Below, in pieces: positions 3,834-56,029 of a stretch of DNA of 64,000 nucleotides. Source of the DNA: a virus; IMG/VR virus record IMGVR_UViG_3300020160_002696, positions 1 to 64,000 of that record; one strand, written 5' to 3'. Both the position numbers and the translations under genes were made by a program. Every line of letters begins with the position of its first letter. Position 1 is the first letter of the stretch. The notes beneath the pieces are model-generated. The model did not search any database. It was not told where the DNA came from and saw nothing but the letters and a program-made list of their open reading frames with translations.

Positions 3834-4943
3834 ATGATAATAAATTTAAAAAGTCAGACTGACCTTTCAGGTTTCTATGTAGTTTATGAAGGCTCAACAA
3901 ACTTGGAAAAACCAGGATGGTATGGAATTTCACACTTAATGGAACATTTAGTATGTAAATCATTTGACCACTTACAAGAAGATTTTGATAGAGATGGAAT
4001 AGACTGGAATGCATATACTTCATCTAATGAGATAGTATTCTATTTAACAGGACTTGATGAAAAAGTAAACAAATGGAAGAAGAAATTCTTAGACCTATTA
4101 ACAACTTTCAAAGTAACAAAAGAAGAATTTGAGAATGAGAGAAAAATAGTCCTTGAAGAATATATGGATTGTTTTAACGATCAAACACAATCACATATGT
4201 TAAACTTATCAAGAAAGTTATTTAATGATTATGATCCAATTGGATTGAAAAAAGACTTGGAAAATCTTAAATTTATGGATTGTCTTAACTTCTTTGAATT
4301 ACAATATTCAAAACCAACCAAAATTATAAATGTTTCAAAACATAAAGATTTTAATGATAAAGGTATTGACTTTCAAGAAAGACATATTACTAAAAGTTTA
4401 TCGTTTGGTAATCATAAGGTTGATTTAGAATTAAATAATGAATTTAAAGATAAGACATCTATTGCAATATTATCACCTGTAATTGAAGAAGACTTTGCAT
4501 ATGTTAACTTTATAAACTCTATGTTATCATTAGGACTTAAATCTCCTTTGTATCAAGAAGTCAGAGAGAAAAAAGGATTAGTATATTATATACATTGTTA
4601 TCAATCAAGAGTATGTGATAAAGGTATTAATGGTATATCCACTTTAACATCAAACAAAAACTTTAATGAAGTTGTTGAAGCAGTTAAGACTGTAATCACT
4701 AACCCTGATAAGTATTTAACTAAAGAAAGATTTAACCTTGTTAAGGAATACTACCAGGTAAGAAAACAAAAAGATGATATTAATAGATATGGTTCTGTTA
4801 ATCAGTGGATTAATCCAAAAGGTTGGTCTGTGTATGACATCTTAGATGAAGTAACCCTTAAAAAAGTTAGAGAAGTTTATGATAAGTATTATGACTTTGA
4901 TAAATTTTATATTTCATCTGATAAAAAAGAATTTAAAAAATAA
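3834..4943 (+). CDS. M16 family (insulinase) zinc metallopeptidase
   Basis: GISHLMEH (HxxEH), NAYTS, ERKIVLEE, SPLYQEVREKKGLVY. Confidence 0.9.
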   Translation: MIINLKSQTDLSGFYVVYEGSTNLEKPGWYGISHLMEHLVCKSFDHLQEDFDRDGIDWNAYTSSNEIVFYLTGLDEKVNKWKKKFLDLLTTFKVTKEEFENERKIVLEEYMDCFNDQTQSHMLNLSRKLFNDYDPIGLKKDLENLKFMDCLNFFELQYSKPTKIINVSKHKDFNDKGIDFQERHITKSLSFGNHKVDLELNNEFKDKTSIAILSPVIEEDFAYVNFINSMLSLGLKSPLYQEVREKKGLVYYIHCYQSRVCDKGINGISTLTSNKNFNEVVEAVKTVITNPDKYLTKERFNLVKEYYQVRKQKDDINRYGSVNQWINPKGWSVYDILDEVTLKKVREVYDKYYDFDKFYISSDKKEFKK

Positions 4944-4946
4944 TAT

Positions 4947-5672
4947 ATGTTAATTCCATATATTGGTGAAAAGACAAAATTTTCACAATTTATAACACCA
5001 AACATTCCAACTGACATATCTACTTATGTAGAACCATTTGGAGGTATGTTTGGTGTTTTCTTTTCTTTAGACTTTGATAAATATGCACATGTTGACTTTA
5101 TTTATAATGATATTAACAACTTAAACTATAATTTATTCAATCAGTTACAGAATAATAAAGATTTTATAGACTTGGTTAAATCTACCAAAGTAGATGAAGA
5201 ATTTTATAGATTTTCACTGAAAGGAATTATTACTACAAAAGATGATGTTCTATTGGCATTACAATGGTTAGTAATTTTGACTTGTTCTAATCCTTATGAA
5301 ATTGGTCAGGATTGTTGGAAAGGTGACAGAGATTTTGAAATATTCAAAATGAAACATAGTGCATATAAACCAAAGATAGATAGAATTACAAGTATTTATA
5401 GTGCTGATTATAAAGATATTATTAATAAGTATGATTCACCTGAGACATTCTTCTATGTTGATCCACCATATAAAGGTAAAGAGAAGTATTATATAAATCA
5501 TGAGTTTGGAACTGATTCACATAAAGAATTAGCAGAAATGTTAAATAACATTCAAGGTAGATTTTTACTAAGCTATTATGATTTTGATGGACTGAGAGAA
5601 TTGTATCATAATTGTAGATTTGAATTTAAGAAAACTATAATGGGAACAGAGTGGATAATTATGAACTACTAA
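4947..5672 (+). CDS. DNA adenine methyltransferase (Dam/D12 family)
   Basis: PYIGEK, YVEPFGG, YNDIN, FYVDPPY. Confidence 0.9.
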   Translation: MLIPYIGEKTKFSQFITPNIPTDISTYVEPFGGMFGVFFSLDFDKYAHVDFIYNDINNLNYNLFNQLQNNKDFIDLVKSTKVDEEFYRFSLKGIITTKDDVLLALQWLVILTCSNPYEIGQDCWKGDRDFEIFKMKHSAYKPKIDRITSIYSADYKDIINKYDSPETFFYVDPPYKGKEKYYINHEFGTDSHKELAEMLNNIQGRFLLSYYDFDGLRELYHNCRFEFKKTIMGTEWIIMNY

Positions 5673-5961
5673 TACCTAACTTGTATAATTTCTTATCTCT
5701 ATCATCACGTAGTTTATAGTTTTCTTTATATAATTTTCTTGCAGCACTTATAATTTCTTTGGCCTGACTTTTAGTTGGATTTTCAGTTCTGGTATTTGGT
5801 ATTCTATCATCAAAGTCCCAATATAACTCATTGTTTAGATAGACTATGGCCTTTAACTCTGAATGATCCTGACCATAATAATTTTTAATATAGTAAGTAT
5901 AATCTACTTGCCAGTTATCATTTTTAGATGTAAAGTAGAATGATGATTTAGTATGTTCCAT
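5659..5961 (-). CDS. Hypothetical protein with C-terminal RxxKL tag
   Basis: Ends LRDDRDKKLYKLGISSS; ATG start MEHTK chosen. Confidence 0.65.
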   Translation of the reverse strand: MEHTKSSFYFTSKNDNWQVDYTYYIKNYYGQDHSELKAIVYLNNELYWDFDDRIPNTRTENPTKSQAKEIISAARKLYKENYKLRDDRDKKLYKLGISSS

Positions 5962-6761: not shown

Positions 6762-7016
6762 TTACTTCTTTAAAATTAAATCAATTTTGGCTTCTCTTTC
6801 TTGTGCCTTTTCTCTTAGTAATCTTGCTTCTCTTTCCTGAGGTGTTTCTTCTCTTTTAGTTTTATAAGTACTCCAATCACTATTCTTCATATAACCACCT
6901 AAGAAATCATCAATACTATAAGATGATCCTAATTCCTTTAATAATTTATCATAGGAATGGTATTTATCAGTTTTGTAATAATCTTTATCAAAAAGATTGT
7001 TCCATTTTTCATTCAT
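6762..7016 (-). CDS. Hypothetical protein with C-terminal RxxKI tag
   Basis: Ends QEREAKIDLILKK. Confidence 0.7.
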   Translation of the reverse strand: MNEKWNNLFDKDYYKTDKYHSYDKLLKELGSSYSIDDFLGGYMKNSDWSTYKTKREETPQEREARLLREKAQEREAKIDLILKK

Positions 7017-13230: not shown

Positions 13231-14646
13231 ATGTCAAATATAATAAACTTAACTTGGAATGGTGCAACTGATGACAATGGTATATCAGGTTATCAAATTC
13301 AATGGAGAACATCTACAACATCACCTTGGTCTCAACCAATTTTAGTTAATCATAATCCTAATTCTCCAGGAAACAATTTAATATCTGGTGGTGGTAGTTA
13401 TAGTCATACTATAACTCAAGTACGTGATCATACATTTAGAATAAGAATAATAGATAGTGTAGGTCAATTTAGTGGTTATAAAGAAATTTCAGTACCTGTT
13501 GATAGTTCCACTATATTAATTTCAAGTCAAGGTATAGCACTTGGAAACAATTTAGTATGTACTTCAAATGCATTAAATCCAATAAATCCTATATTACTTA
13601 AAGATAATGGTGTAATAACTAGTACAATAACAGATACTTTAACATTTGTAAAAAATGTTGATGATAGTACATTTGATGGACAAAACAGATTTTGGAGAAT
13701 ATTATTGAATACAATAAGTTATAAATGTAAAATAGAACCATCAGGTAAGATTGTATCACATGAACAATGTTCCTCTAATATTAGAACATTTAATATATCA
13801 AGTCAAGGTTATGATTCAAATATAACAAATGGTCAAATATGTGTAGCAGACTTAAATAATACAATATATTTCAATAATGAATTACAAATTGGTACTATAG
13901 TTTATAATACTTTGAATGATAATGGTACTTTATCAGGTCCATTTATTGGTATTAATAGATATTATTTAATTAGTGATAATGATTTTTACTATATTATTCA
14001 AATACAAAATAATGGTAGTGTATCATCTATTCAAGATTATACTGCAGTCTGTCAGTTAGATGATCCAAATAATGTTATTGTTACTTGTTGTTTTGTAAAA
14101 GGAACTAAAATAACAATGTTTGATTATACAACTAAAAATATTGAAGATGTTAAAATTGGTGATATTGTAATAACTTATAATGAAGAAACTAAATTACAAG
14201 AACCAGGTGAAGTAACAAATATAGCAAATCCTGTAAAAAGTAATATAGTTGAATATGAATTATCAAATGGTGTGTTAATAAAATCAACTACTTGTCATCC
14301 TTATTGGGTTGTTAATAAAGGTTGGTCATCATTTAATAAATCATTAACTAAAGAATTGTATGATTTTAATGTAGAACAAATAGAAGAGAGTGATGTTTTA
14401 CTTACTATAGATAATAAAGAGGTTGTTGTTGATAAAATAACTGAACTAATAACTAAAGAAGTTGCTACATATAATTTAGAAATATTGGGTAATCATACAT
14501 ATTATGCAAATGGTATTTTAGTTCATAATAAAACTGCTGTTCCTCCTGCACCAAACAGGTATGATGAATTTGGTAATCAAACATCTGCTTGGACTACATG
14601 GAATAACTTGTATGGTACTACAGCAACTTGTTATGCAGAACCATAA
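13231..14646 (+). CDS. FN3-like + Hint-domain putative virion protein
   Basis: N-terminal INLTWNGATDDNGISGY (FN3-like); Hint domain from CFVKGT to VHN. Confidence 0.8.
   Translation: MSNIINLTWNGATDDNGISGYQIQWRTSTTSPWSQPILVNHNPNSPGNNLISGGGSYSHTITQVRDHTFRIRIIDSVGQFSGYKEISVPVDSSTILISSQGIALGNNLVCTSNALNPINPILLKDNGVITSTITDTLTFVKNVDDSTFDGQNRFWRILLNTISYKCKIEPSGKIVSHEQCSSNIRTFNISSQGYDSNITNGQICVADLNNTIYFNNELQIGTIVYNTLNDNGTLSGPFIGINRYYLISDNDFYYIIQIQNNGSVSSIQDYTAVCQLDDPNNVIVTCCFVKGTKITMFDYTTKNIEDVKIGDIVITYNEETKLQEPGEVTNIANPVKSNIVEYELSNGVLIKSTTCHPYWVVNKGWSSFNKSLTKELYDFNVEQIEESDVLLTIDNKEVVVDKITELITKEVATYNLEILGNHTYYANGILVHNKTAVPPAPNRYDEFGNQTSAWTTWNNLYGTTATCYAEP
14089..14529 (+). other. Hint (intein-like / BIL-type) autoprocessing domain, no endonuclease
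   Basis: Block A CFVKGTKI, KNIEDVKIGD, block B TTCHPYW, block F/G YNLEILGNHTYYANGILVHN; +1 residue is Lys. Confidence 0.9.
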
Positions 14647-20138: not shown

Positions 20139-20783
20139 ATGGCAATACCTACATATACAAGAGAACAATTAATAACATTAATATCAACAAAATTGGCAGG
20201 TTCTCCTAATACAATAGATGCAGTTGAACATAGAGAACTTGAAACTGCTATAGTAAATGCTATTTATGGACAAATAGGTGATATTAAAGAAATTTCATGT
20301 AATACTACTTATATAACAAATAACTTTAAAACAGGTACTAATTTAATTGATGAAGGTTTGGGACTTCCATCAGGTGAAAGATATGGTTGGGCTATATGTA
20401 ATGGTAAAAATGGAACAGTAGATAAAAGAGGTAATGTTTCTATAGGTTATGATCCTTCAAGTTATGCAACACTTGCTTCTACTCAGTCAGGTGGTGGTAC
20501 TACACCTTATAAACAAGGTGGTCTAAAAACAGTTACATTAACAATTGATCAAATGCCACCACATAGTCATACACGTCCCAGAGGTAATGATAATAATTTA
20601 GGTGGTGGAACAAATCAGTATGGTTGGCAAGCAATTGATGATTTGTTTGGTAGCTATGCAACAAACACCACAGGAGGTGCTGGATCTACATCAACTGGTA
20701 ATACAACTGGAGGTTCAACCAATGCGCATGAAAACATGCAACCTTACATAGTTACTTTATTTATTCAGAGGATTCCTGTTTAA
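20139..20783 (+). CDS. Tail collar / baseplate-fibre-like protein
   Basis: GDIKE...GWAICNGKNGT.D.RG...GG.KTVTLTIDQMPPHSH...AHENMQPYIV. Confidence 0.75.
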   Translation: MAIPTYTREQLITLISTKLAGSPNTIDAVEHRELETAIVNAIYGQIGDIKEISCNTTYITNNFKTGTNLIDEGLGLPSGERYGWAICNGKNGTVDKRGNVSIGYDPSSYATLASTQSGGGTTPYKQGGLKTVTLTIDQMPPHSHTRPRGNDNNLGGGTNQYGWQAIDDLFGSYATNTTGGAGSTSTGNTTGGSTNAHENMQPYIVTLFIQRIPV

Positions 20784-21483
20784 AAAGTAGTAAATATCCA
20801 ATTTTACCGGCTTCATCCTTTGAATAGTGACCCATTGCTTCTAACTTGGTTTCATCACCAGTTAGTTTAATGTTTCTTAACTTTTGTTTACCCAATATAC
20901 GTTTATCTCCTTTACAAGTCTTACAAGGAGTTAAACCAACTTTTCCCTGACCCTGACAAAATGAACATTTGTTACCATTGTAGTCTTTACCACTACCTTC
21001 ACAGAAATCACAACCATCATCAGCATCAAAGATATGTAATACCTTACCATCATTATCTTTAATGATAATTTTAGATGATAAATCTTTTCCAGATCCATCA
21101 CAAGTCTTACACATTACCCATCTTTCATATTCAATTTTCCCATCAAAAGTATCATCTACCTTGATGTAAATATTGAACACATCATTCTTTTTGAACTTCT
21201 CTAATTTATCCTTAGTGTCATCAAAATTGAAATTAAAATCTGTTTCTAATAACTCATAATACTCATTGTAGTTATTACCATATCTACTTTTCATATCATA
21301 AGCCTCTCTTTCTTCACCACAAAGAATATCATATGCTTCTGTTAAATCACCAAATACAATTGAATCACCACCTTTATCAGGGTGGTGAGTAAAGGAAAGT
21401 TTATAGTAAGCTTTCTTTATCTCTTTTTCAGTAGAGGTATTTATAACTCCAAGTAAAGCATAATAGTTTTTATTTAGATTCAT
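20761..21483 (-). CDS. dnaJ: DnaJ-like co-chaperone
   Basis: J domain with HPD, followed by four CxxCxG(xG) zinc-finger motifs. Confidence 0.85.
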   Translation of the reverse strand: MNLNKNYYALLGVINTSTEKEIKKAYYKLSFTHHPDKGGDSIVFGDLTEAYDILCGEEREAYDMKSRYGNNYNEYYELLETDFNFNFDDTKDKLEKFKKNDVFNIYIKVDDTFDGKIEYERWVMCKTCDGSGKDLSSKIIIKDNDGKVLHIFDADDGCDFCEGSGKDYNGNKCSFCQGQGKVGLTPCKTCKGDKRILGKQKLRNIKLTGDETKLEAMGHYSKDEAGKIGYLLLFKQESSE

Positions 21484-21684: not shown

Positions 21685-21921
21685 TTATTTATCTAAAATT
21701 TTATCTATTTTCTCTGATCTTCTATTTATCTTATTTAATAATTCAAATCTATACTCTGACTTAAAGCCACACCATCTACATTTTTCCACTGGTTTTTTTG
21801 GTGGTTCATTTGTTGGTTTGATAGGTATAGAATATGTATGTGATATATCATTTGACCCACATTCTGGACAATTATTTAATGTTTTATCATATAACATATT
21901 TAAAGGAAAGTTTATTTCCAT
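21685..21921 (-). CDS. Zinc-ribbon protein with C-terminal RxxKI tag
   Basis: CPECG...CRWCG; ends RRSEKIDKILDK. Confidence 0.7.
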   Translation of the reverse strand: MEINFPLNMLYDKTLNNCPECGSNDISHTYSIPIKPTNEPPKKPVEKCRWCGFKSEYRFELLNKINRRSEKIDKILDK

Positions 21922-22046
21922 AACTCTAATATTTTTCTTATTTTAATCATTCTTATCCATCTCTTATCTGGTATTCCTGTAACACCAACAGGTCCACTTG
22001 AACCTGTTGGTCCTAATTTTATACTATATTTTATTTTAGTGTTCAT
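21912..22046 (-). CDS. 44-aa peptide: collagen-like snippet + RxxKI tag (not in ORF track)
   Basis: MNTKIKYSIKLGPTGSSGPVGVTGIPDKRWIRMIKIRKILELWK; overlaps both neighbours. Confidence 0.6.
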   Translation of the reverse strand: MNTKIKYSIKLGPTGSSGPVGVTGIPDKRWIRMIKIRKILELWK

Positions 22047-23733: not shown

Positions 23734-23764
23734 TTATTAGTTTGACTTTTTCTTTTTATATAAA

Positions 23765-23788
23765 AAAAGTCAACCTAAGTTGACTTTT
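23765..23788. terminator. Intrinsic terminator hairpin
   Basis: aaaagtcaac-ctaa-gttgactttt. Confidence 0.65.
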
Positions 23789-24080
23789 ATTCTTCTGCTT
23801 CTCCAAAGTAATAATCTAAATCTATTTCATCTAAAGTATTTATAATTTCATTGTAAGGCACTAGCTTTTCTACTATTTCTAAAACTAATTTGTTATAACC
23901 TTTCCAGTTTTCAATTGAACATCCAAGAATTTCTTCCAATGTTTCATCTACTGTTAAGGTAACAAATTGATTCTTATAGTAAAAAGTGGCCTCATAGTAT
24001 TCATCTTCATAATTCAATGATAGAATTACTAATACACCATCTTCTATTTTACCTAAATATTCAATTATATCAAATTTCAT
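23787..24080 (-). CDS. Hypothetical acidic protein
   Basis: Operon ORF. Confidence 0.65.
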   Translation of the reverse strand: MKFDIIEYLGKIEDGVLVILSLNYEDEYYEATFYYKNQFVTLTVDETLEEILGCSIENWKGYNKLVLEIVEKLVPYNEIINTLDEIDLDYYFGEAEE

Positions 24081-24304
24081 TATCCTAAAATAGTTTCAAT
24101 TTTTTCATCTCTTTCTTCTTGAGATAAATTTTTTAAAAATCCACCTCTTATTAAAGTATTCATAATACTTATAGCTTGTTTTGTTCTACCATCAACATAT
24201 GAACTCATCATATCTCTATAATAGTCATGTATATTTCTTCTCTCATCTTCTGTTTTCAGACTTGATACTTTATCAAGATCCAAATAATAATCTTCTAACT
24301 TCAT
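24080..24304 (-). CDS. Hypothetical protein with C-terminal RxxKI tag
   Basis: Start MKLEDYY; ends EERDEKIETILG. Confidence 0.7.
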   Translation of the reverse strand: MKLEDYYLDLDKVSSLKTEDERRNIHDYYRDMMSSYVDGRTKQAISIMNTLIRGGFLKNLSQEERDEKIETILG

Positions 24305-24311
24305 TTTATAA

Positions 24312-24581
24312 TTATATTTTTTCTCCAACAACAAATTCCAATTTATGAAATTTATTATCAGTTCCAGTAAATACAATTTGAATTTTGTCAACATCAACAA
24401 ATTCTTTTGCCATACCAGTTACTTCATTAATCATAACATCTTTTTTATAGACAACATCAATTGATGGTTCTTCTCCTAAAAATCTACGCATATCTTCTAA
24501 TATCTTTGATATTTTCCAATCATCATTTTTGAAATCTATATTAGACATATATTGTCTAATTGAGTGTTCTTTTAAATCCAT
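24312..24581 (-). CDS. Hypothetical protein
   Basis: Operon ORF. Confidence 0.65.
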   Translation of the reverse strand: MDLKEHSIRQYMSNIDFKNDDWKISKILEDMRRFLGEEPSIDVVYKKDVMINEVTGMAKEFVDVDKIQIVFTGTDNKFHKLEFVVGEKI

Positions 24582-24943: not shown

Positions 24944-25336
24944 CTACCTCATGACCCTCTTTTTAGTTTTCTTTATAGGTTTTCTATATATCTCTATTAA
25001 TCCATTTGAATATTCAATTCTCTCATAAAAATATTTAATTGATACTAAATTATGTTTTCTAACTATCTCTAATCTACCAATCACTTTAGCATCTTTTATA
25101 TTTACTATGTAAGGTCCATTCTTTAATTTTCTATAGTTTCTCAAAACAGTATCACAAACTTCTCTTCTTATAAGAGGTCTTGATTTATAATTAGAATAAA
25201 CTACCATTGAATCAGAACCTCTGACATTACTTATACTTTCCATTCCATCATAACCATGGTTATAATATTCAACTTTTTTCTGTGAATAAACAAATGTTGT
25301 TATAAACAAAAATAATAATATACTAATCTTTCTCAT
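24944..25336 (-). CDS. Secreted protein with Bacteroidota-style signal peptide
   Basis: MRKISILLFLFITTFVYSQ N-terminus. Confidence 0.65.
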   Translation of the reverse strand: MRKISILLFLFITTFVYSQKKVEYYNHGYDGMESISNVRGSDSMVVYSNYKSRPLIRREVCDTVLRNYRKLKNGPYIVNIKDAKVIGRLEIVRKHNLVSIKYFYERIEYSNGLIEIYRKPIKKTKKRVMR

Positions 25337-25493
25337 ATATGGAAACTCCAGGACTAATAAATATAGATTCATTCTTAGGTGGTAAACCTAATATTCTTCT
25401 TATTTTAATTTTACGTAAATTATTCTTAGGTATTCTGATGTATGTATTGTCAGAATAAGTGGTATAAACACCAGGTTTCATATAGACTGACAT
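25323..25493 (-). CDS. 56-aa peptide: tail-sheath N-terminal-like motifs flanking an RxxKI tag (not in ORF track)
   Basis: MSVYMKPGVYTTYSDNTYIRIPKNNLRKIKIRRILGLPPKNESIFISPGVSIYEKD; start overlaps the upstream stop. Confidence 0.6.
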   Translation of the reverse strand: MSVYMKPGVYTTYSDNTYIRIPKNNLRKIKIRRILGLPPKNESIFISPGVSIYEKD

Positions 25494-25948
25494 TATATTG
25501 TAGTTGAATTTGTTGCACCATAAACAAAATCCATATAGAATAGGTGACCACTTGGACCACTTGGTTTAATATAATCAGGATGATCCTCAGTCTTCATTTC
25601 CTCAAAATCTTTACCTTCAACAAGAGCATCAATTTTTCTATCTCTATTTTCTATCTTAACTTCTTGTTTGATTTTCTTCATTTCATCACCAGAATTACCA
25701 CCACCTATTGGTGCTACTGATACTAAATCTTGTCCTATTGTTTGAGCAGCAACTCTCATTGCAATTGGTAGTAAACTACCATAATCAGGTTGTGAAGTTA
25801 TTATACTATCTGGTGCAGTAACTATTTCATTAGTGGCATGTAGTTCAGCATATTGTGACATCCACTCTTTTTTATCTTCTGAGATTTTCATACTATTAAG
25901 TACTGAATCCCATTTCTTTAGTGTTTCTTCTTTGTTTAATTTTTCCAT
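25493..25948 (-). CDS. Truncated T4 gp23-like major capsid protein paralog with inserted RxxKI segment
   Basis: KEETLKKWDSVL...LLPIAMRVAAQTIGQDLVSVAPI[insert]PSGHLFYMDFVYG vs gp23 KAELLNKWKPLL...VRRAIPNLIAFDICGVQPMNSPTGQVFALRAVYG. Confidence 0.7.
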   Translation of the reverse strand: MEKLNKEETLKKWDSVLNSMKISEDKKEWMSQYAELHATNEIVTAPDSIITSQPDYGSLLPIAMRVAAQTIGQDLVSVAPIGGGNSGDEMKKIKQEVKIENRDRKIDALVEGKDFEEMKTEDHPDYIKPSGPSGHLFYMDFVYGATNSTTI

Positions 25949-25952
25949 AAAA

Positions 25953-25980
25953 AAAGTTTTCTATTTATATAGAAAACTTT
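25953..25980. repeat. Inverted repeat (possible terminator) containing TATAAATA on the minus strand
   Basis: aaagttttctat-ttat-atagaaaacttt. Confidence 0.5.
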
Positions 25981-52000: not shown

Positions 52001-52684
52001 ATGAAACACTTAAAAAAGTTTAATGAAAGTAAATCAGAAATGCCATTGGAAGACTACTTTGTAGAATTTGTAGATGAAGGGTTTACTATTGAAAGAGAGT
52101 TAAATCAATTCAAACTTAAATATACTGGAGAATATGATTTTAGTCAAACACTTGAAATGTATAATGATGTAATCTCTAAATTACAAGCTTATGGTAGAGA
52201 TATAACTAAAACAGACTTATCATATAGAAAATCTGTTACAAATATTCTTATTGAAGTTAAGAATAATATTAAACCTAATGATGCTATTGAAATTACACTT
52301 AGAGGTGAAAAATTAAAACTAATACCACATGCTTATGCAGTATATGGTAGTCCACAACCTCAACAAAGTTATCATACTAATGATGCAGGTAGAACAGTAA
52401 AACTTGGTAAACCAAGACCACCATATGTTAATACTATAATATTATTCTGTAAAGATGAAAATAATAGAAACTATAATATAACTTGGGAAAATAGATATGG
52501 TAATGAACTTTCTAAAGAGGATATTAGAGCAAAAGTACAAAATACAAATATTAATATTGATTTAGAAAATGCTTCTAAAGTAATAGAAACTATCAAAAAG
52601 AATGAAATTGAGGCAAGATATGGAACTGAAATAATGCTTGATGTATTTACTGAAACAATTACTCCAGAATTACTTACTAGATAA
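52001..52684 (+). CDS. Protein with capsid-targeting-like leader (MKHLKKFNES)
   Basis: Shared motif; late promoter upstream. Confidence 0.65.
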   Translation: MKHLKKFNESKSEMPLEDYFVEFVDEGFTIERELNQFKLKYTGEYDFSQTLEMYNDVISKLQAYGRDITKTDLSYRKSVTNILIEVKNNIKPNDAIEITLRGEKLKLIPHAYAVYGSPQPQQSYHTNDAGRTVKLGKPRPPYVNTIILFCKDENNRNYNITWENRYGNELSKEDIRAKVQNTNINIDLENASKVIETIKKNEIEARYGTEIMLDVFTETITPELLTR

Positions 52685-53111
52685 TCTGACTAATCTTATT
52701 GTATCTTGCTATTGACTTACTAAATACTGATGCTTGTTCAGCCATACTTTCACACTCTGATTTTACATATTGCATATCTCTATAAGTGCCACTTAATCCA
52801 AAGACACTATCTTCATTTAGTAAAAAATAAGGTGTTAAATCTCCATAATGTGCACAATCAAATCCAATGACCCAATTATTATTATCATCATATGAATTAT
52901 ATGTTAGACCACCATGTGCTCTTATATTAAGTTCATCATATCCAATACCATATAAAGAACTATCTCGTGTTAAAGTAATATATCCACATAAAGCTTTTAA
53001 TCCATTTCTATGTATAGAACACTCAATAATGACACCATTACTACAGGTATAATTCCATAGTAATGTGTCACCTTCTTTTTCAATCAGTTCCTTTAATTGT
53101 TCTTTATTCAT
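52677..53111 (-). CDS. Conserved phage protein (HGGLTY...GFDCAH) with C-terminal RxxKI tag
   Basis: CGYI, AHGGLTY, WVIGFDCAHYGD; ends ARYNKISQII. Confidence 0.75.
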   Translation of the reverse strand: MNKEQLKELIEKEGDTLLWNYTCSNGVIIECSIHRNGLKALCGYITLTRDSSLYGIGYDELNIRAHGGLTYNSYDDNNNWVIGFDCAHYGDLTPYFLLNEDSVFGLSGTYRDMQYVKSECESMAEQASVFSKSIARYNKISQII

Positions 53112-53528
53112 ATAGTAAATCCTGTTTGTAAATTGTCAATAAACCTTTGTGGTAGATAAACATTCTTTAATCTGATTGCTGGTTTGAAAAGAGGTGCAAT
53201 TTCCTCTACTGTAAAATAAGCTAAGTTACAACCTAACTCAACCACATAAAATGTTAAGTGAGTATTTTCTTTGGCAAATATAATAAAATTATCTATACCT
53301 TGTTTAATTTCATCTAAAGTAACTGGATTATAATTACTTCTTAATTCTTTTGTTACTATGGCATATGATTGACCTTGTAAACCTTTAGATTGACCATAAA
53401 TAGCACCAAATTTATTTCTTGCAGTTAATGCTGCTCCTCCGACCATGTCTTCCTTGTCGGTTAGATCCAAACGTGAAGACTTCATTTTCTTTTAATTCTT
53501 TAATATATTTAGGTGTTATTCTTTCCAT
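53108..53528 (-). pseudogene. A1S_2505-like (macro-fold-related) phage protein with a +1 frameshift
   Basis: MERITPKYIKELKENEVFTFGSNRQGRHG, then one extra C at 53441, then GGAALTARNKFGAIYGQSKGLQGQSYAI...LGCNLA. Confidence 0.7.
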
Positions 53529-53863
53529 ATATCTGCAAATGTTGGTTTATAAGTAACTTTAGGATTTTCATAACCCAAAAGTTCATCAATCAATTTATTT
53601 CTTCTTTCTTGTTTTGAATAGAAAGAGTTCATATCAATTATTTGATATGGAAAGTATAGATTTATACTTTTTCTTCTTCTGAAAATTGGACCTGATATTA
53701 TTTCTTCATAAAAATCCTTTTTTACATAAGAAAAATTATTACAATCATCATAATACCAATCATAATCATCATAATAGTCATAATAGTCATACCACTGAAT
53801 AAACTCAAGGTCTAATTCACGTCTAACTACATCATACTTATCTTTTTTACTAGTCTTCTTCAT
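53516..53863 (-). CDS. Tyr/Asp-rich protein with RxxK-type tag
   Basis: YDYYDYYDDYDWYYDD; QERRNKLIDELLG. Confidence 0.65.
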   Translation of the reverse strand: MKKTSKKDKYDVVRRELDLEFIQWYDYYDYYDDYDWYYDDCNNFSYVKKDFYEEIISGPIFRRRKSINLYFPYQIIDMNSFYSKQERRNKLIDELLGYENPKVTYKPTFADIWKE

Positions 53864-54264: not shown

Positions 54265-54693
54265 TTAGTCTATTAAGTTTAGTAAGTGTTCTACTCTATA
54301 AAATATCTTAGTTTTAGCTTCTTCTTTTGTTAAAAAACCACACCAATCTAATTCCTCAATCTGTAACATTTCTTTTGGTAAAGTTTCATCTGACAAATCA
54401 ATCTCTGAAATATCATTGATATAAACTTTGAATAAATAAAGTTCTTTATAAATCTTACCTCTCTTATCATTATAAAGTATAACAATTGGTTCTTTATCAA
54501 TGATTCTATCTTCTGTTATCTCAATAGAAGTTTCTTCTTTAAGTTCTCTTATGGCAGCTTCTATTTGACTTTCACCTAATTCTATACCACCTTTAGGAAA
54601 TGAATAGGTATTAGACCACCTTGCATTAGTTGGATGACTTAAAAGTAACTTGTTATTATTTAGAATAATTATTATTCCTGCTGATTTTTCCAT
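54265..54693 (-). CDS. Nudix hydrolase
   Basis: KSAGII, FPKGGIELGESQIEAAIRELKEETS. Confidence 0.9.
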   Translation of the reverse strand: MEKSAGIIIILNNNKLLLSHPTNARWSNTYSFPKGGIELGESQIEAAIRELKEETSIEITEDRIIDKEPIVILYNDKRGKIYKELYLFKVYINDISEIDLSDETLPKEMLQIEELDWCGFLTKEEAKTKIFYRVEHLLNLID

Positions 54694-55088
54694 TATATTC
54701 CTAAGTCATTTAATTTTGCTTCTCTTGATAATGCTTTTTTTGCATCTGCTGGTATATCACCAACAAATCCATCCCAGTTTTTGATTTTATTTATTGCTTG
54801 GTTTGCAACAATTACATTTTTAATTTCTCTTTTAACTTCATCTGCTTCAAGATTTATATTAACTAAAGCACCACTATTTTCATTTATACAGACAAGTTCA
54901 CTGGTTACTTTTCTTTCAGTTGTACCAAGACCAAACCAAGTAGTTCTTTCAGTTACTTTTTCAACTTTATTATATACAAATACATAATGATAATTATTAC
55001 TCCAACCCTTTTTAATATTAAAGTAATAGGTTTTACCATCTTCAAATAAGAATGGTGTCATTTCAACTATAATTTTATCTTTTTCCAT
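54693..55088 (-). CDS. Hypothetical protein with C-terminal tag
   Basis: Ends LSREAKLNDLGI. Confidence 0.7.
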   Translation of the reverse strand: MEKDKIIVEMTPFLFEDGKTYYFNIKKGWSNNYHYVFVYNKVEKVTERTTWFGLGTTERKVTSELVCINENSGALVNINLEADEVKREIKNVIVANQAINKIKNWDGFVGDIPADAKKALSREAKLNDLGI

Positions 55089-55091
55089 GTT

Positions 55092-55709
55092 TTAATTAAA
55101 TGTTAATTTATATATTTCTTCTATTGCTTTTATTCCATTAGGTTTTATCTCTCTTGTTCCAATACCTGCAAAGTTTTCATAACTTATTTTAAGAGGTTTT
55201 GTGACTTCAATAAACTTTAGTGAGGTATATGACCATCTAAACCATTTGTCTTTATCCTGGTCAAATACATAAACAAACTTACCATTATTTATGGCCATTT
55301 GAACTGCATAACCTGTACCACCATCAACTACTTGAAACTCTGATTTATTATAAAATCCTTTTGAACCTTTTTTACCAGGTTCTACTATAGTTCCAATTGC
55401 AAATACTTCATCAGAATATTTTACTTGAGACCAGTTTCTTGCTAACAAGTTCATAAACTTATGAATACCATATCTACTTAAAACTCTATTTGCTTTAGTT
55501 ATTTCTTTTACTCCTTCTTCATAATCAGTATCACTAATTTCTACTTTATTTTCAGTAGTATGATACTTTGTTTTGTAAGAATATGCCTTTGTCTTTACAC
55601 CATAGTTGGCTCCTATGGTTTCAAAATAAGTATCACTTCCAATTGCTCCACCAGAATGACAAACTAATCTGTCTAATCTGATTGGTGTATTTCCAAATAT
55701 ATCTATCAT
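55092..55709 (-). CDS. SLOG/DprA-like Rossmann-fold protein
   Basis: CHSGGAIGSD, LLARN, GGTGYAV, VYVFDQ, FAGIGTR. Confidence 0.6.
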   Translation of the reverse strand: MIDIFGNTPIRLDRLVCHSGGAIGSDTYFETIGANYGVKTKAYSYKTKYHTTENKVEISDTDYEEGVKEITKANRVLSRYGIHKFMNLLARNWSQVKYSDEVFAIGTIVEPGKKGSKGFYNKSEFQVVDGGTGYAVQMAINNGKFVYVFDQDKDKWFRWSYTSLKFIEVTKPLKISYENFAGIGTREIKPNGIKAIEEIYKLTFN

Positions 55710-56029
55710 ATTCCCAATTCTTTTAATTTTATATCTCTTGTATATACTACATAGTCTTCTGCTTGTGTAATGAAGTATTCATTCATTTCTTGTTCAGTAA
55801 AGTAATACCATTTTACTCTTTCTGAGTATGGTTTATTCCACCAATCTTTCTTATCAGATCCAAAAAATTCATCTTCAACACAGAAACCATAACCTTCTTT
55901 ATCAGTTGCAGCATTCCAAGTTAAGTCACCACAACCTTTTATCTTGTAGTGACTTTTTAGTTTTAATGTTTCATATTGTTTTATACAAACAACACTATCT
56001 CCCATTTCAAATCTATCTTCTTTATACAT
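55706..56029 (-). CDS. Hypothetical protein with C-terminal tag
   Basis: FEMGDSVVCIK; ends TRDIKLKELGI. Confidence 0.7.
   Translation of the reverse strand: MYKEDRFEMGDSVVCIKQYETLKLKSHYKIKGCGDLTWNAATDKEGYGFCVEDEFFGSDKKDWWNKPYSERVKWYYFTEQEMNEYFITQAEDYVVYTRDIKLKELGI

Follow-up and report, generated by a model that had tools for sequence, protein, structure and literature searches.

The window analysed in this study (64,000 nucleotides, positions 1 to 64,000 of IMG/VR record IMGVR_UViG_3300020160_002696) carries on its minus strand, at 25493..25948, an intact open reading frame of 151 codons with an ATG start and its own stop. The product is a truncated paralogue of a gp23-type major capsid protein (MCP), of which it covers the N-terminal ~130 residues, and it is referred to here as the mini-MCP. 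The source of the gene is a giant uncultured phage, represented by an 86.8-kb contig.

Along the chain, residues 1-42 (25823..25948, minus strand) form a propeptide-like two-helix segment that equals the start of the MCP. Its motif, K-K-W ... Y-A-E-x-H-x-x-N-E, is aligned with MCP residues 7-45 by hhalign, and the helices placed by AF2 at residues 6-19 and 24-42 parallel those at 8-21 and 27-49 in a low-confidence MCP model. A variable linker follows (residues 43-58; 25775..25822, minus strand), characterized by high dN/dS and low pLDDT, which falls below 50 over residues 44-54. Residues 59-82 (25703..25774, minus strand), comprising an L-L-P-I-A-type helix and a D-L-V-S-V-x-P strand, represent the most conserved motif of the MCP, which is spanned in full MCPs by positions 6-74 of the Pfam Gp23 model. 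P61, T70, L75, V76, V78 and P80 show little or no variation among 41 diverse members of the family. The likely counterpart in T4 gp23 lies at about residues 92-118, which would be the Gol region.

The family-specific insert occupies residues 83-130 (25559..25702, minus strand) and has no counterpart in the MCP; AF2 predicts a long helix at 87-111 followed by an E-D-H-P-D-Y segment, with pLDDT above 90 over residues 87-130. Within the helix lies the tag core N-R-D-R-K-I-D-A-L-V (residues 101-110; 25619..25648, minus strand), of the form R-x-x-K-I-x-x-L-V. Downstream of the insert, the G-P-x-G-x-L-F-Y-x-D-F-x-Y-G strand (residues 131-144; 25517..25558, minus strand) corresponds to the MCP strand after the V-x-P turn; it is matched to MCP 113-127, where the poor AF2 model of the MCP places a strand at 119-125, and L136, Y138, D140 and Y143 are conserved.

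The first-pass annotation had stated that the rest of the HK97 fold is missing, and this proved correct, since the 151 residues cover MCP positions 7-131 only: the A/P domains, E-loop and spine helix are missing, and the chain ends past the first E-loop-side strand. The mini-MCP thus cannot build an HK97 shell subunit. The AF2 model of the mini-MCP consists of four helices without a sheet (mean pLDDT 72, pTM 0.37) and is for that reason uninformative on the fold, and a Foldseek search of this model against the PDB returned nothing at E<=0.001. Of the AF2 model of the clade MCP P0503 (pLDDT 52.7), the N-terminal secondary structure alone was used, as a weak parallel.

The neighbourhood of the gene is a conserved block of small ORFs together with a T5orf172-like gene and a Rad50-like gene; protease, scaffold and MCP genes do not adjoin it. 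The T5orf172-like gene (PHROG E 4e-16) lies two genes downstream and holds a fixed place in 24 of 36 loci, and a DnaJ-like gene is found 4 kb from the mini-MCP. Immediately upstream, at 25953..25980 on the minus strand, there is a hairpin (11-bp stem, TATAAA loop), after which a T run extends to the start codon. According to a per-sequence stem search, such a hairpin precedes 33 of the 60 distinct orthologues, compared with 25 of the 351 other genes in the same loci, and the bases of its outer stem vary by lineage with complementarity retained. When 35 upstream regions were aligned with MAFFT, RNAalifold gave no consensus structure, since the loop lengths differ and the arms are misaligned.

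The abundant upstream word AATATATA, which precedes 26 of 100 genes, is missing in front of the mini-gene, and in relatives it stands in front of the MCP genes; this difference does not by itself date expression. In RNA library X13 a 266-nt contig extends across 25676-25947, and library X12 has depth in the bin 25674-25814. These were not counted as expression, because such contigs may derive from DNA.

Relation to capsid proteins and selection on the family

The first ~80 residues of the mini-MCP match by tblastn the N-termini of a 563-aa ORF of LR756504 (E 5e-10) and a 608-aa ORF of LR756501 (E 2e-10). Pfam assigns both ORFs to Gp23 (E 8e-26 and 2e-25, respectively), and they match the solved T4 gp23 structure (E 5e-5). 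The comparison by hhalign of a profile of 41 mini-proteins with a profile of 6 MCPs from 630-735 kb phages gave a probability of 99.7% and an E-value of 4.6e-27 over 96 aligned columns with 42% identity, spanning positions 9-153 of the mini-protein profile and 7-131 of the MCP profile. The insert appears in this alignment as 49 columns between the 'V-x-P' and 'GP..LFY.DF.Y' strands, and the site, which receives 48-49 residues in the mini-MCP, is contiguous in both the MCP and T4 gp23.

A Pfam scan of the mini-MCP gave no family at E<=10, not even PF07068 (Gp23), a model that full-length MCPs from relatives hit at E ~1e-25; the PHROGs scan was empty, and the family profile (A1) retrieved no PDB sequence at E<=10. 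The MCP profile is co-linear with T4 gp23 over positions 7-121, although the N-terminal stretch, which sets the L-L-P-V-A...V-K-P motif at T4 ~92-118, has a score of just 0.7 bits. As judged from these alignments, the link of the mini-MCP to T4 gp23 is transitive, through the megaphage MCPs. The gp23-family N-terminus that had been read from the sequence stands with respect to megaphage MCPs, whereas the direct similarity to T4 gp23 is insignificant. The ESM Atlas supplied a lead only: its two closest clusters are viral and unnamed, and next comes a cluster of 117 aa in which 58% of the members carry Gp23.

A full MCP elsewhere in the genome had also been anticipated, and it is present in the complete relatives, where an intact MCP of full length, N-terminus included, is located about 90 kb from the mini-gene: at ~200.8 kb against ~291.4 kb in LR745206, and at ~227.5 kb against ~315.8 kb in LR756502. 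The 86.8-kb contig contains no further Gp23 match.

The family is large. Among 331 candidates, 315 homologues were found at E<=1e-3, with lengths of 132-160 aa among the 120 matches listed. Clustering at 50% identity gave at least 278 groups, of which 126 have E<=1e-10. Chance similarity is excluded by the E-values, the 315 homologues and a dN/dS well below 1. Estimated from 36 pairs with dS of 0.03-0.7, dN/dS was 0.26 for the whole gene, 0.28 for the N-terminus, 0.25 for the motif and 0.16, the lowest value, for the insert; the linker reached 0.58 in close pairs and about 1.0 in all pairs. The N-R-x-x-K core of the insert is the best-conserved part of the family: among the 41 diverse members R102 never varies, while the conservation of N101 and of K105 is 90% or more, and NR..K[ILV] occurs in 54 of 59 orthologues, counted as complete distinct ORFs.

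Neutral decay of a pseudogene with no conserved insert, or the absence of any gp23 similarity, had been named as outcomes that would speak against the first-pass reading; what was found is purifying selection on the gene (dN/dS 0.26) that is strongest in the insert (0.16). These data indicate that the mini-MCP is almost certainly a selected, tagged paralogue of the MCP N-terminus, and the description of a truncated gp23-family paralogue with a shared tag in a conserved insert is thereby upheld (hhalign 99.7%, R102 invariant).

The claim that the insert breaks a motif contiguous in gp23 is true of this lineage, as the 49-column gap shows, and has to be modified for some others, in which the insert lies before the 'DLVSVQP' strand: a regular expression identified L056, L057 and L089 among the 59 ORFs, and L060, L077-L079, L087 and L088 are candidates by eye for the same upstream position. 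The propeptide-like N-terminal part is kept in 44 of the 59 orthologues and absent in 15, and polybasic C-terminal tails also occur in 15 of the 59. An x-N-E site in common with the MCP (N40 and E41, both at least 90% conserved) characterizes the close subfamily of 29 sequences, and in LR745206 a near-identical H-S-I-N-E-N site is found in the MCP and the mini-protein. This putative prohead-protease site was considered as a general family feature and dropped, as neither the 41 diverse members as a set nor the LR756502 copy retain it.

A tag shared with other mini-genes

Of 100 genes of the contig, 8 have the R-x-x-K-I/L-x-x-I/L/V motif no more than 6 residues from the C-terminus, against an expectation of 0.3 genes from the internal rate and a mean of 0.12 (maximum 2) in 500 shuffles. 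An HMM of the insert helix found its best non-self matches in the C-terminal tags of other small ORFs. In the mini-MCP the tag is internal, within the insert, unlike the C-terminal tags of the other genes. The closest match to the insert motif (best non-self match of the tag HMM, E 0.0026) is a 104-aa helical protein encoded in the same gene block (24080..24394, minus strand), which ends in E-E-R-D-E-K-I-E-T-I-L-G; at the relative position of its gene, a family of ~72 aa is found in 17 of 36 loci.

The mini-MCP stop is overlapped by the start of a sheath-arm-like 56-aa ORF (25323..25493, minus strand), in which one or more P-G-V-Y motifs like those of the sheath N-arm flank an R-K-I-K-I-R-R-I-L tag. 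The N-termini of true sheath proteins read K-R-P-G-I-F/Y-I-x-E-x-D-x-S, which the ORF resembles, and a coupled ORF with a PGVY motif and the tag was present in 9 of 14 loci inspected. The adjacent sheath-like peptide is therefore a conserved, coupled and tagged mini-gene, and the 'virion-mimic cassette' that had been proposed on this basis is real as a pattern of arrangement.

Further tagged pieces of virion proteins were identified: a tagged MCP C-terminal piece at 68221-68427 of G000, and tagged MCP spine-helix and C-terminal pieces in LR745206 and LR756502. In total, the tagged virion pieces cover three MCP regions and the sheath arm. LR745206 and LR756502 employ the same R-x-x-K-I/L-x-x-I/L/V tag as this contig; the tag of LR756501 is D-P-Y-G-E-E-x-W. 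The tag is also borne by a MazG-like protein (52677-53111), the sole PHROG match among the tagged families. No known anti-defence domain was found by Pfam or PHROGs in the tagged protein families or the mini-MCP.

Possible roles of the mini-MCP

In T4, as described in PMC3014915, Gol is the most conserved region of gp23 and binds EF-Tu; a stretch of ~100 residues from the first quarter of the protein is an autonomous EF-Tu-binding unit with more stable binding, and this triggers the Lit protease. We tentatively favour the reading, a serious possibility though short of a probable one, that the mini-MCP may act as a docked mimic of the N-terminal, Gol-equivalent segment of the MCP in conflict with host sensors or rival phages. 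The capsid-derived part would bind a putative factor that normally reads the invariant N-terminal segment while the MCP is nascent or not yet assembled, the insert helix would tether the complex to a putative tag-reading partner, and the interrupted motif could allow binding without triggering. In this way a host sensor or factor that reads conserved epitopes of the virion would be intercepted, or a rival phage would be interfered with. A conflict role is favoured because pieces of several virion proteins are tagged in the same genomes and because the tagged genes lie among small accessory genes, outside the head module. A copy of an activating epitope should itself trigger the sensor, and so the decoy idea needs the assumption of binding without activation.

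Several features speak against a role in conflict. A gene that is near-universal and syntenic within its clade and under moderate to strong purifying selection looks more like a housekeeping gene, as for assembly, than a patchy anti-defence gene; the propeptide-like N-terminus retained in 44 of 59 orthologues points towards assembly, and the polybasic tails would suit binding to DNA or an acidic scaffold. Co-folding of the mini-protein (A1) with the full MCP P0503 (A6), a clade MCP sharing about 75% identity with those of LR745206 and LR756502, scored 0.00 in both runs, which were made without controls and speak neither way.

The main alternative, though somewhat unlikely, is that the mini-MCP would serve as a regulator or chaperone of head assembly, being a free copy of the scaffold-facing N-terminus of the MCP. 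It would bind the scaffold/protease core or the docking site for the N-arm on a neighbouring MCP and thereby cap or time the growth of a very large shell as it polymerises; the coupled sheath-arm peptide would act likewise on the sheath, and the tag would dock to an assembly hub or chaperone. According to PMC9546572, the N-terminal region of T4 gp23 is located within the head before expansion, probably at the scaffold core, and afterwards becomes the inter-capsomer N-arm; this scaffold-side location in the prohead interior is in line with an assembly function. The propeptide-like helices match the MCP start and are kept by selection (dN/dS 0.28), which an assembly role explains about as well as mimicry does, and the near-identical H-S-I-N-E-N site of the MCP and mini-protein in LR745206, the core-like conservation and synteny, the polybasic tails and the DnaJ-like gene 4 kb away all agree with it. 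However, the mini-gene lies outside the head-gene module and its upstream element is unlike that of MCP genes, 15 of 59 orthologues are missing the propeptide-like part, the x-N-E site is unconserved in the diverse family, including the LR756502 copy, and the tag is also found on non-interface MCP pieces and on the MazG-like protein.

In T4, capsid-targeted internal proteins bearing a capsid-targeting sequence (CTS) are trimmed by the head protease. By this precedent, the mini-MCP could enter the prohead on the scaffold by its MCP-like propeptide and be trimmed by the protease, the remainder staying with the DNA and being injected. This role as a packaged internal head protein draws on the N-terminal segment common with the MCP, the x-N-E site of some genomes and the polybasic C-terminal tails, but it appears improbable, as propeptide-less forms are common (15 of 59), the partner mini-gene mimics a sheath arm that would be out of place inside a head, and the strongest constraint falls on the insert rather than on the N-terminus. 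Gene debris is very improbable indeed, either as a remnant of an MCP duplication, as a T5orf172-type (GIY-YIG-like) hitchhiker or as the first exon of a split MCP. The T5orf172-like gene lies two genes downstream, and in LR756504 the full MCP adjoins the Rad50-like gene, so that the locus may be an old MCP site. Nevertheless, the dN/dS of 0.26 has its minimum in the non-MCP insert, hundreds of intact homologues of equal length exist, the full-length MCP of the complete relatives is intact and has an N-terminus of its own, 24 of 36 loci have the T5orf172-like gene in its fixed place, and the 86.8-kb contig contains no other Gp23 match. The split MCP or exon and the HEG-carried debris were consequently rejected on the selection and conservation data.

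Returning to the docked mimic, a broader version of it, which we consider unlikely, would be a genome-wide 'tagged epitope' system of gp23-type megaphages, in which dozens of mini-proteins share one common docking helix. Each would show one of the least mutable snippets of the virion, namely the Gol-equivalent segment, the spine helix or C-terminus of the capsid protein, or the sheath arm, and a single phage partner would capture and neutralise the host immune sensors, host factors or rival-phage subunits by which these snippets are recognised. The mini-MCP would be the most widespread member of such a generic decoy array against sensors of conserved phage proteins, with its tag inside the epitope to permit binding without triggering.

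Bacterial immune systems often sense unchangeable parts of phage structural proteins. If tagged copies of such sensed parts are indeed what these genes encode, they would represent a new counter-defence principle and a ready-made map of the virion epitopes that matter in nature; if the role is assembly control, they would help to explain how the shells and sheaths of 0.6-Mb phages avoid mis-polymerising. In either reading, the family is large and recognisable (at least 278 clusters), and the tag offers a handle for finding a putative hub protein of uncultured megaphages. The literature searched, including the main text of PMC7824862, does not describe capsid-fragment mini-proteins or the present design, in which a copy of the first quarter of the MCP has a docking-like helix spliced into it.

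Comparison with known systems shows both likenesses and differences. By position, the mini-MCP corresponds to the N-terminal quarter of T4 gp23 (propeptide, N-arm helix and 'V-Q-P-M ... G-x-x-F' strands), which contains Gol, the trigger of the e14 Lit protease through EF-Tu, but it is a separate gene product and not part of a capsid protein. The ~29-residue core is contiguous in T4 Gol, whereas the motif is split in the mini-MCP by the insert of 48-49 residues, which in other mini-MCP lineages lies a few residues upstream. Like T4 gp24, the mini-MCP is an MCP paralogue maintained alongside the MCP in one genome; gp24, however, is a complete HK97-fold vertex subunit, while the mini-MCP has ~130 MCP-derived residues and lacks the A/P domain.

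Small phage proteins with a short shared address peptide are known from T4, where IPI-III and Alt (by their capsid-targeting sequence) and the prohead-core proteins gp67 and gp68 carry one. The tagged proteins resemble them in sharing a short peptide and, in the genomes with x-N-E, in possible gp21-type trimming; the T4 address is an N-terminal leader of ~10 residues, whereas here it is a C-terminal or internal amphipathic helix, and the N-terminus of the mini-MCP copies the propeptide of the MCP itself. Encapsulin cargo-loading peptides and the C-terminal helix of P22 scaffolding protein dock unrelated proteins to an HK97-fold shell, in P22 to the N-arm. The tag has no sequence similarity to these and, in contrast to them, is also present on sheath-derived and enzyme-like proteins. 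The satellite proteins P4 Sid, SaPI CpmB and PICI Ccm bind capsid assembly surfaces and alter the outcome of assembly. Those proteins are encoded by parasites and have full HK97 or unrelated folds, whereas the mini-MCP is a fragment encoded by the phage.

Relationship of the mini-MCP to the major capsid protein

The mini-MCP gene (25493-25948, minus strand) is an intact ORF of 151 codons, from ATG to stop, located on the contig G000, an 86.8-kb virus fragment with a G+C content of 25-31% and an estimated completeness of ~15%. The closest public relatives of this contig are uncultured phage genomes of 630-735 kb (LR745206, LR756502, LR756504, and LR756501/3), to which its nucleotide similarity is only patchy. 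Syntenic mini-MCP orthologues were identified in LR745206 (157 aa, 52% identical, E 2e-41) and LR756502 (165 aa, 49% identical, E 1e-42).

The first ~80 residues of the mini-MCP match the N-termini of a 563-aa ORF in LR756504 (E 5e-10) and a 608-aa ORF in LR756501 (E 2e-10). Both ORFs are Pfam Gp23 matches (E ~1e-25), match solved T4 gp23 structures (E 5e-5), and are preceded by a long protease/scaffold-like gene, whose weak similarity to Peptidase_S77 falls short of the cut-off (E 6.7e-5). A full MCP (560-571 aa) is also present in LR745206 and LR756502, in each case ~90 kb from the mini-gene. The hhalign comparison of a profile of 41 mini-proteins with a profile of six MCPs gave a probability of 99.7% (E 4.6e-27) over 96 aligned columns with 42% identity, placing positions 9-153 of the mini-protein on MCP positions 7-131. 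Both proteins start with K-K-W...Y-A-E-x-H-x-x-N-E and share a second motif, L-L-P-I/V-A-M-K...D-L-V-x-V-x-P, which is followed by 49 columns exclusive to the mini-protein and then, in both, by the strand G-P-x-x-x-L-F/L-Y-x-D-F-x-Y; a Gly-rich stretch ahead of the L-L-P motif is found in the MCP only. This alignment with the MCPs of the clade reproduces the architecture described in the first-pass annotation, namely a gp23-type start, a conserved capsid segment, an insert, and a resumed strand.

The relationship to gp23 claimed in the same annotation holds for the gp23-type MCPs of megaphages; the mini-protein itself had no Pfam match, its family profile had no match in the PDB, and its link to T4 is indirect, via the megaphage MCPs. 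The MCP profile is co-linear with T4 gp23 residues 7-121, with an N-terminal stretch scoring only 0.7 bits, and its L-L-P...V-K-P motif falls on T4 ~92-118, where gp23 reads V-Q-P-M-N-S-P-T without interruption. Pfam matches of the full MCPs to Gp23 begin (model positions 6-74) exactly at the L-L-P...V-x-P motif.

The mini-MCP family is large. In the 90%-clustered protein collection, 315 homologues were found at E<=1e-3 among 331 candidates, and those listed, at least 120, are 132-160 aa long and 57-100% identical. An exhaustive search of 50%-identity representatives yielded 278 clusters, 126 of them at E<=1e-10 and 5 at E<=1e-30, and 147 of the 150 clusters listed do not exceed 200 aa. DNA was recovered for 70 metagenomic and 2 viral-contig loci, from which 41 distinct complete orthologues of 140-170 aa were aligned by codon. 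Three residues, P61, R102, and D140, do not vary among 41 diverse members, and conservation is 90% or higher at T70, L75, V76, V78, P80, N101, K105, L136, Y138, and Y143; in conservation, the N-R-x-x-K core of the insert therefore equals the capsid motif.

The pooled dN/dS from 36 pairs (dS 0.03-0.7) was 0.26 for the whole gene, 0.28 for the propeptide-like N-terminus, 0.58 for the linker (residues 45-58), 0.25 for the capsid motif, 0.16 for the insert, and 0.29 for the C-terminal strand. When all 353 pairs were used (dS up to 1.5), the linker reached ~1.0 and the other regions 0.28-0.38. These data indicate that the mini-MCP is a working gene, with the strongest constraint on its insert. According to the first-pass annotation, its reading would fall if gp23 similarity were lacking, or if the gene were decaying neutrally and had no conserved insert; the gp23-type similarity, the low dN/dS, and the conserved insert therefore speak against either case.

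Variation within the family and predicted structure

Among 59 complete distinct ORFs from the recovered loci, N-R-x-x-K-I/L/V is present in 54, the L-L-P-I-A-type motif in 53, and the L-F-Y-x-D-F strand in 55. The K-W N-terminus is kept in 44 and missing in 15, most of which are 98-121 aa long and start just ahead of the L-L-P motif; a polybasic tail ends 15 of the 59. The insertion into a motif that is contiguous in gp23, as previously annotated, applies to the window lineage and not to several others, in which the insert lies ahead of the D-L-V-S-V-Q-P strand, so that V-Q-P-L-S-x-P-x-G-x-L-F-Y is contiguous as in gp23 (loci L056, L057, and L089 by pattern match; L060, L077-L079, L087, and L088 by eye).

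In P0241, a 366-aa protein from the representative search, an unrelated N-terminal part of 300 aa is fused to the insert helix, a D-H-P-D-Y segment, and an L-F-Y-M-D-F strand. As only the insert and strand of the mini-MCP family are carried, at the C-terminus, this unit can travel as a transferable module. A 72-aa ORF of LR756504 (~415.9 kb, L017) has the capsid motif L-F-P-I-A...V-S-V-Q-P-L followed by two R/K-x-K-I-x-x-I/L tags, and amounts to a pared-down mini-MCP in a genome without the 150-aa form.

The AF2 model of the mini-MCP, based on the 41-sequence alignment, has a mean pLDDT of 72 and a pTM of 0.37, with helices at 6-19, 24-42, and 60-73, a long helix at 87-111, and pLDDT above 90 for residues 87-130. 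No sheet was predicted in this model, and Foldseek found no match to it. A low-confidence model of a full MCP (pLDDT 52.7) begins with the same order of elements: helices at 8-21, 27-49, and 93-104 precede a strand at 119-125. A role as shell subunit is impossible for the mini-protein, whose two strand segments presumably depend on a partner.

The shared tag and the genomic context

Of 100 contig genes, crudely called, 8 encode the tag R-x-x-K-I/L-x-x-I/L/V no more than 6 residues from the C-terminus, against 0.3 expected from the internal rate and a mean of 0.12 (maximum 2) in 500 residue shuffles. All eight proteins are 44-144 aa long and encoded on the minus strand (5659-5961, 6762-7016, 21685-21921, 21912-22046, 24080-24394, 52677-53111, 54693-55088, and 55706-56029); the protein of 52677-53111 is MazG-like by PHROG, and the other seven belong to no known family. 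When an HMM built from the insert helix alone was searched against all 263 contig ORFs, the mini-MCP itself ranked first, followed by the C-terminal tag of its 104-aa neighbour (24080-24394, E 0.0026), a capsid-C-terminus mini-ORF at ~68.2 kb (E 0.0049), and the C-terminal tags of 6762-7016, 53516-53863, 21685-21921, and 5659-5961 (E 0.11-0.65). Although single matches are weak, the ranking is consistent; the insert helix and the terminal tags are one motif.

Other tagged ORFs also resemble pieces of virion proteins. In a 56-aa ORF whose start overlaps the mini-gene stop, P-G-V-Y motifs surround the tag R-K-I-K-I-R-R-I-L. Nine of 14 loci inspected, very divergent ones included, have a coupled ORF that combines S/K-P-G-V-Y-x-x-E with a tag, and in one of the 14 a capsid C-terminal fragment takes the place of this ORF. 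True sheath proteins of LR745206, LR756502, and LR756504 start with ...K-R-P-G-I-F/Y-I-x-E-x-D-x-S, in agreement with the sheath-like peptide annotated beside the mini-MCP. At 1252-1298 aa, the open frames of these tail-sheath homologues are very long, and they match Pfam Phage_sheath_1 only weakly (LR745206 ~168 kb, LR756502 ~193 kb, LR756504 ~166 kb; L100-L102).

The Pfam Gp23 scan of four complete relatives also picked small ORFs, including a tagged capsid C-terminal piece in LR745206 (79 aa) and tagged spine-helix pieces in LR745206 and LR756502 (67 and 73 aa). Capsid C-terminal or spine-helix ORFs of 56-79 aa followed by an R-x-x-K/N-I-x-x-I-F tag lie at ~255.1 kb and ~440.2 kb in LR745206 (L090, L091) and ~466.3 kb in LR756502 (L092). 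In the 735-kb LR756501, capsid-fragment ORFs, including a C-terminal piece, end in another motif, D-P-Y-G-E-E-x-W, and a 196-aa concatenated mini-MCP joins the N-terminus, N-arm helix, spine helix, and C-terminal strand; ORFs of 200 and 116 aa with MCP-like N-termini were also observed (~145.9 kb, ~276.5 kb, ~497.5 kb, and ~565.4 kb; L093-L095, L016). Beyond the window, G000 encodes a 69-aa ORF (68221-68427, minus) with the capsid C-terminal motif V-W-L-P-Y ... S-R-Y and a K-R-K-R-K-I-R-N-I-L tag, overlapped by a 54-aa ORF ending in another tag (68399-68560, minus). The mini-MCP is the largest and most widespread member of this set of tagged virion-fragment mini-genes.

Across 36 loci of at least 4 kb, the mini-MCP lies in a co-directional block, in the order ~319-aa protein (22 loci), ~103-aa protein (23), mini-MCP, variable small ORF, ~111-aa T5orf172-like protein (24), and proteins of ~90 aa (23), ~72 aa (17), ~116 aa (20), and ~580 aa (20), paired with window genes by length and position, and by sequence for T5orf172. 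The window counterpart of the ~580-aa protein is an SMC/SbcC/Rad50-like ATPase; the recombination role proposed for T5orf172, mentioned in the jumbo-phage comparative review PMC7824862, fits the location of the T5orf172-like gene beside this Rad50-like gene. DnaJ-like, collagen-repeat fibre-like, and Gp10_C-like genes are also nearby, and the block is not the protease-scaffold-MCP module. The gene of the DnaJ-like protein (20761-21483, minus), which has a J domain (E 2e-14) and a CXXCXGXG zinc-finger region, immediately follows two tagged mini-ORFs. In the window, the sheath-arm ORF is separated from the T5orf172-like gene by a 142-aa ORF (24944-25372, minus), whose N-terminus is hydrophobic and signal-like; of the 14 loci inspected, only L018 and L019, the closest relatives, have it. 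Elsewhere in the window are an M16 (insulinase-type) peptidase homologue (3834-4943, plus) and a Hint/PT-HINT-like domain protein (13231-14646, plus) flanked by two ~1800-aa genes.

Directly 5' of the mini-MCP start codon is a hairpin with an 11-bp stem, a TATAAA loop, and a T run (25953-25980, minus), and a similar hairpin with a TATAA-type loop precedes the Rad50-like gene (23742-23773, minus); at both genes and at orthologous loci (L018-L071), the distance to the start codon is 3-10 nt. Hairpins with TATAA or TATAT in the loop and 6 bp or more of perfectly paired stem precede 33 of 60 distinct mini-MCP orthologues versus 25 of 351 other genes of the same loci. Their inner arms (C-T-T-T-T-C/G-A-A-A-A-G) are mostly conserved, and the outer stem bases vary yet stay complementary; RNAalifold on a plain alignment of the upstream regions returned no structure. 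The hairpin could be a terminator, a terminator-promoter overlap, a promoter within a palindrome, or an operator. For 26 of 100 contig genes (1.5 expected), the 80 nt ahead of the gene contain the ATATATA-type word AATATATA, in many cases with G or C as the next base. The word is probably a promoter element of the phage, and in the relatives it precedes the MCP genes in place of the hairpin.

Possible roles of the mini-MCP

Concerning the corresponding part of T4 gp23, passages of PMC9546572 describe the N-terminal region as disordered before expansion, when it lies in the head interior and probably on the scaffolding core, and, after expansion, as forming the N-arm and N-fist that tie capsomers together. 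According to PMC3014915, Gol is the best-conserved region of gp23 and binds EF-Tu; binding is more stable with ~100 residues from the first quarter of the protein, and this complex triggers the Lit protease. The mini-protein is in effect this first quarter as a stand-alone product, its motif split by an inserted helix of docking type.

A docked mimic of this kind would occupy whatever reads the invariant capsid segment. We tentatively favour such a role in conflict, because the same tag is placed on snippets of different virion proteins, non-interface pieces included, because the mini-genes sit among accessory small ORFs, and because the capsid epitope is 'deliberately' interrupted. A somewhat less likely role is in assembly, where the scaffold-facing and N-arm segment, supplied as a free copy, would regulate or cap polymerisation; support for it comes from propeptide-like helices that have been retained, from conservation like that of a core gene, and from the basic tails. 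Packaged cargo is improbable, and gene debris is very unlikely.

Searches of the literature on huge phages, megaphages, and jumbo phages, apart from supplementary files, which may hold relevant annotations, found no description of capsid-fragment, decoy, mimic, or paralogue genes of the mini-MCP type, and the terms looked up in the review PMC7824862 led to nothing on such genes. The T4 Gol/Lit/EF-Tu system, T4 gp24, CTS-tagged internal proteins, encapsulin and P22 docking peptides, and satellite capsid-redirecting proteins each have one feature in common with the mini-MCP and differ from it in the rest.
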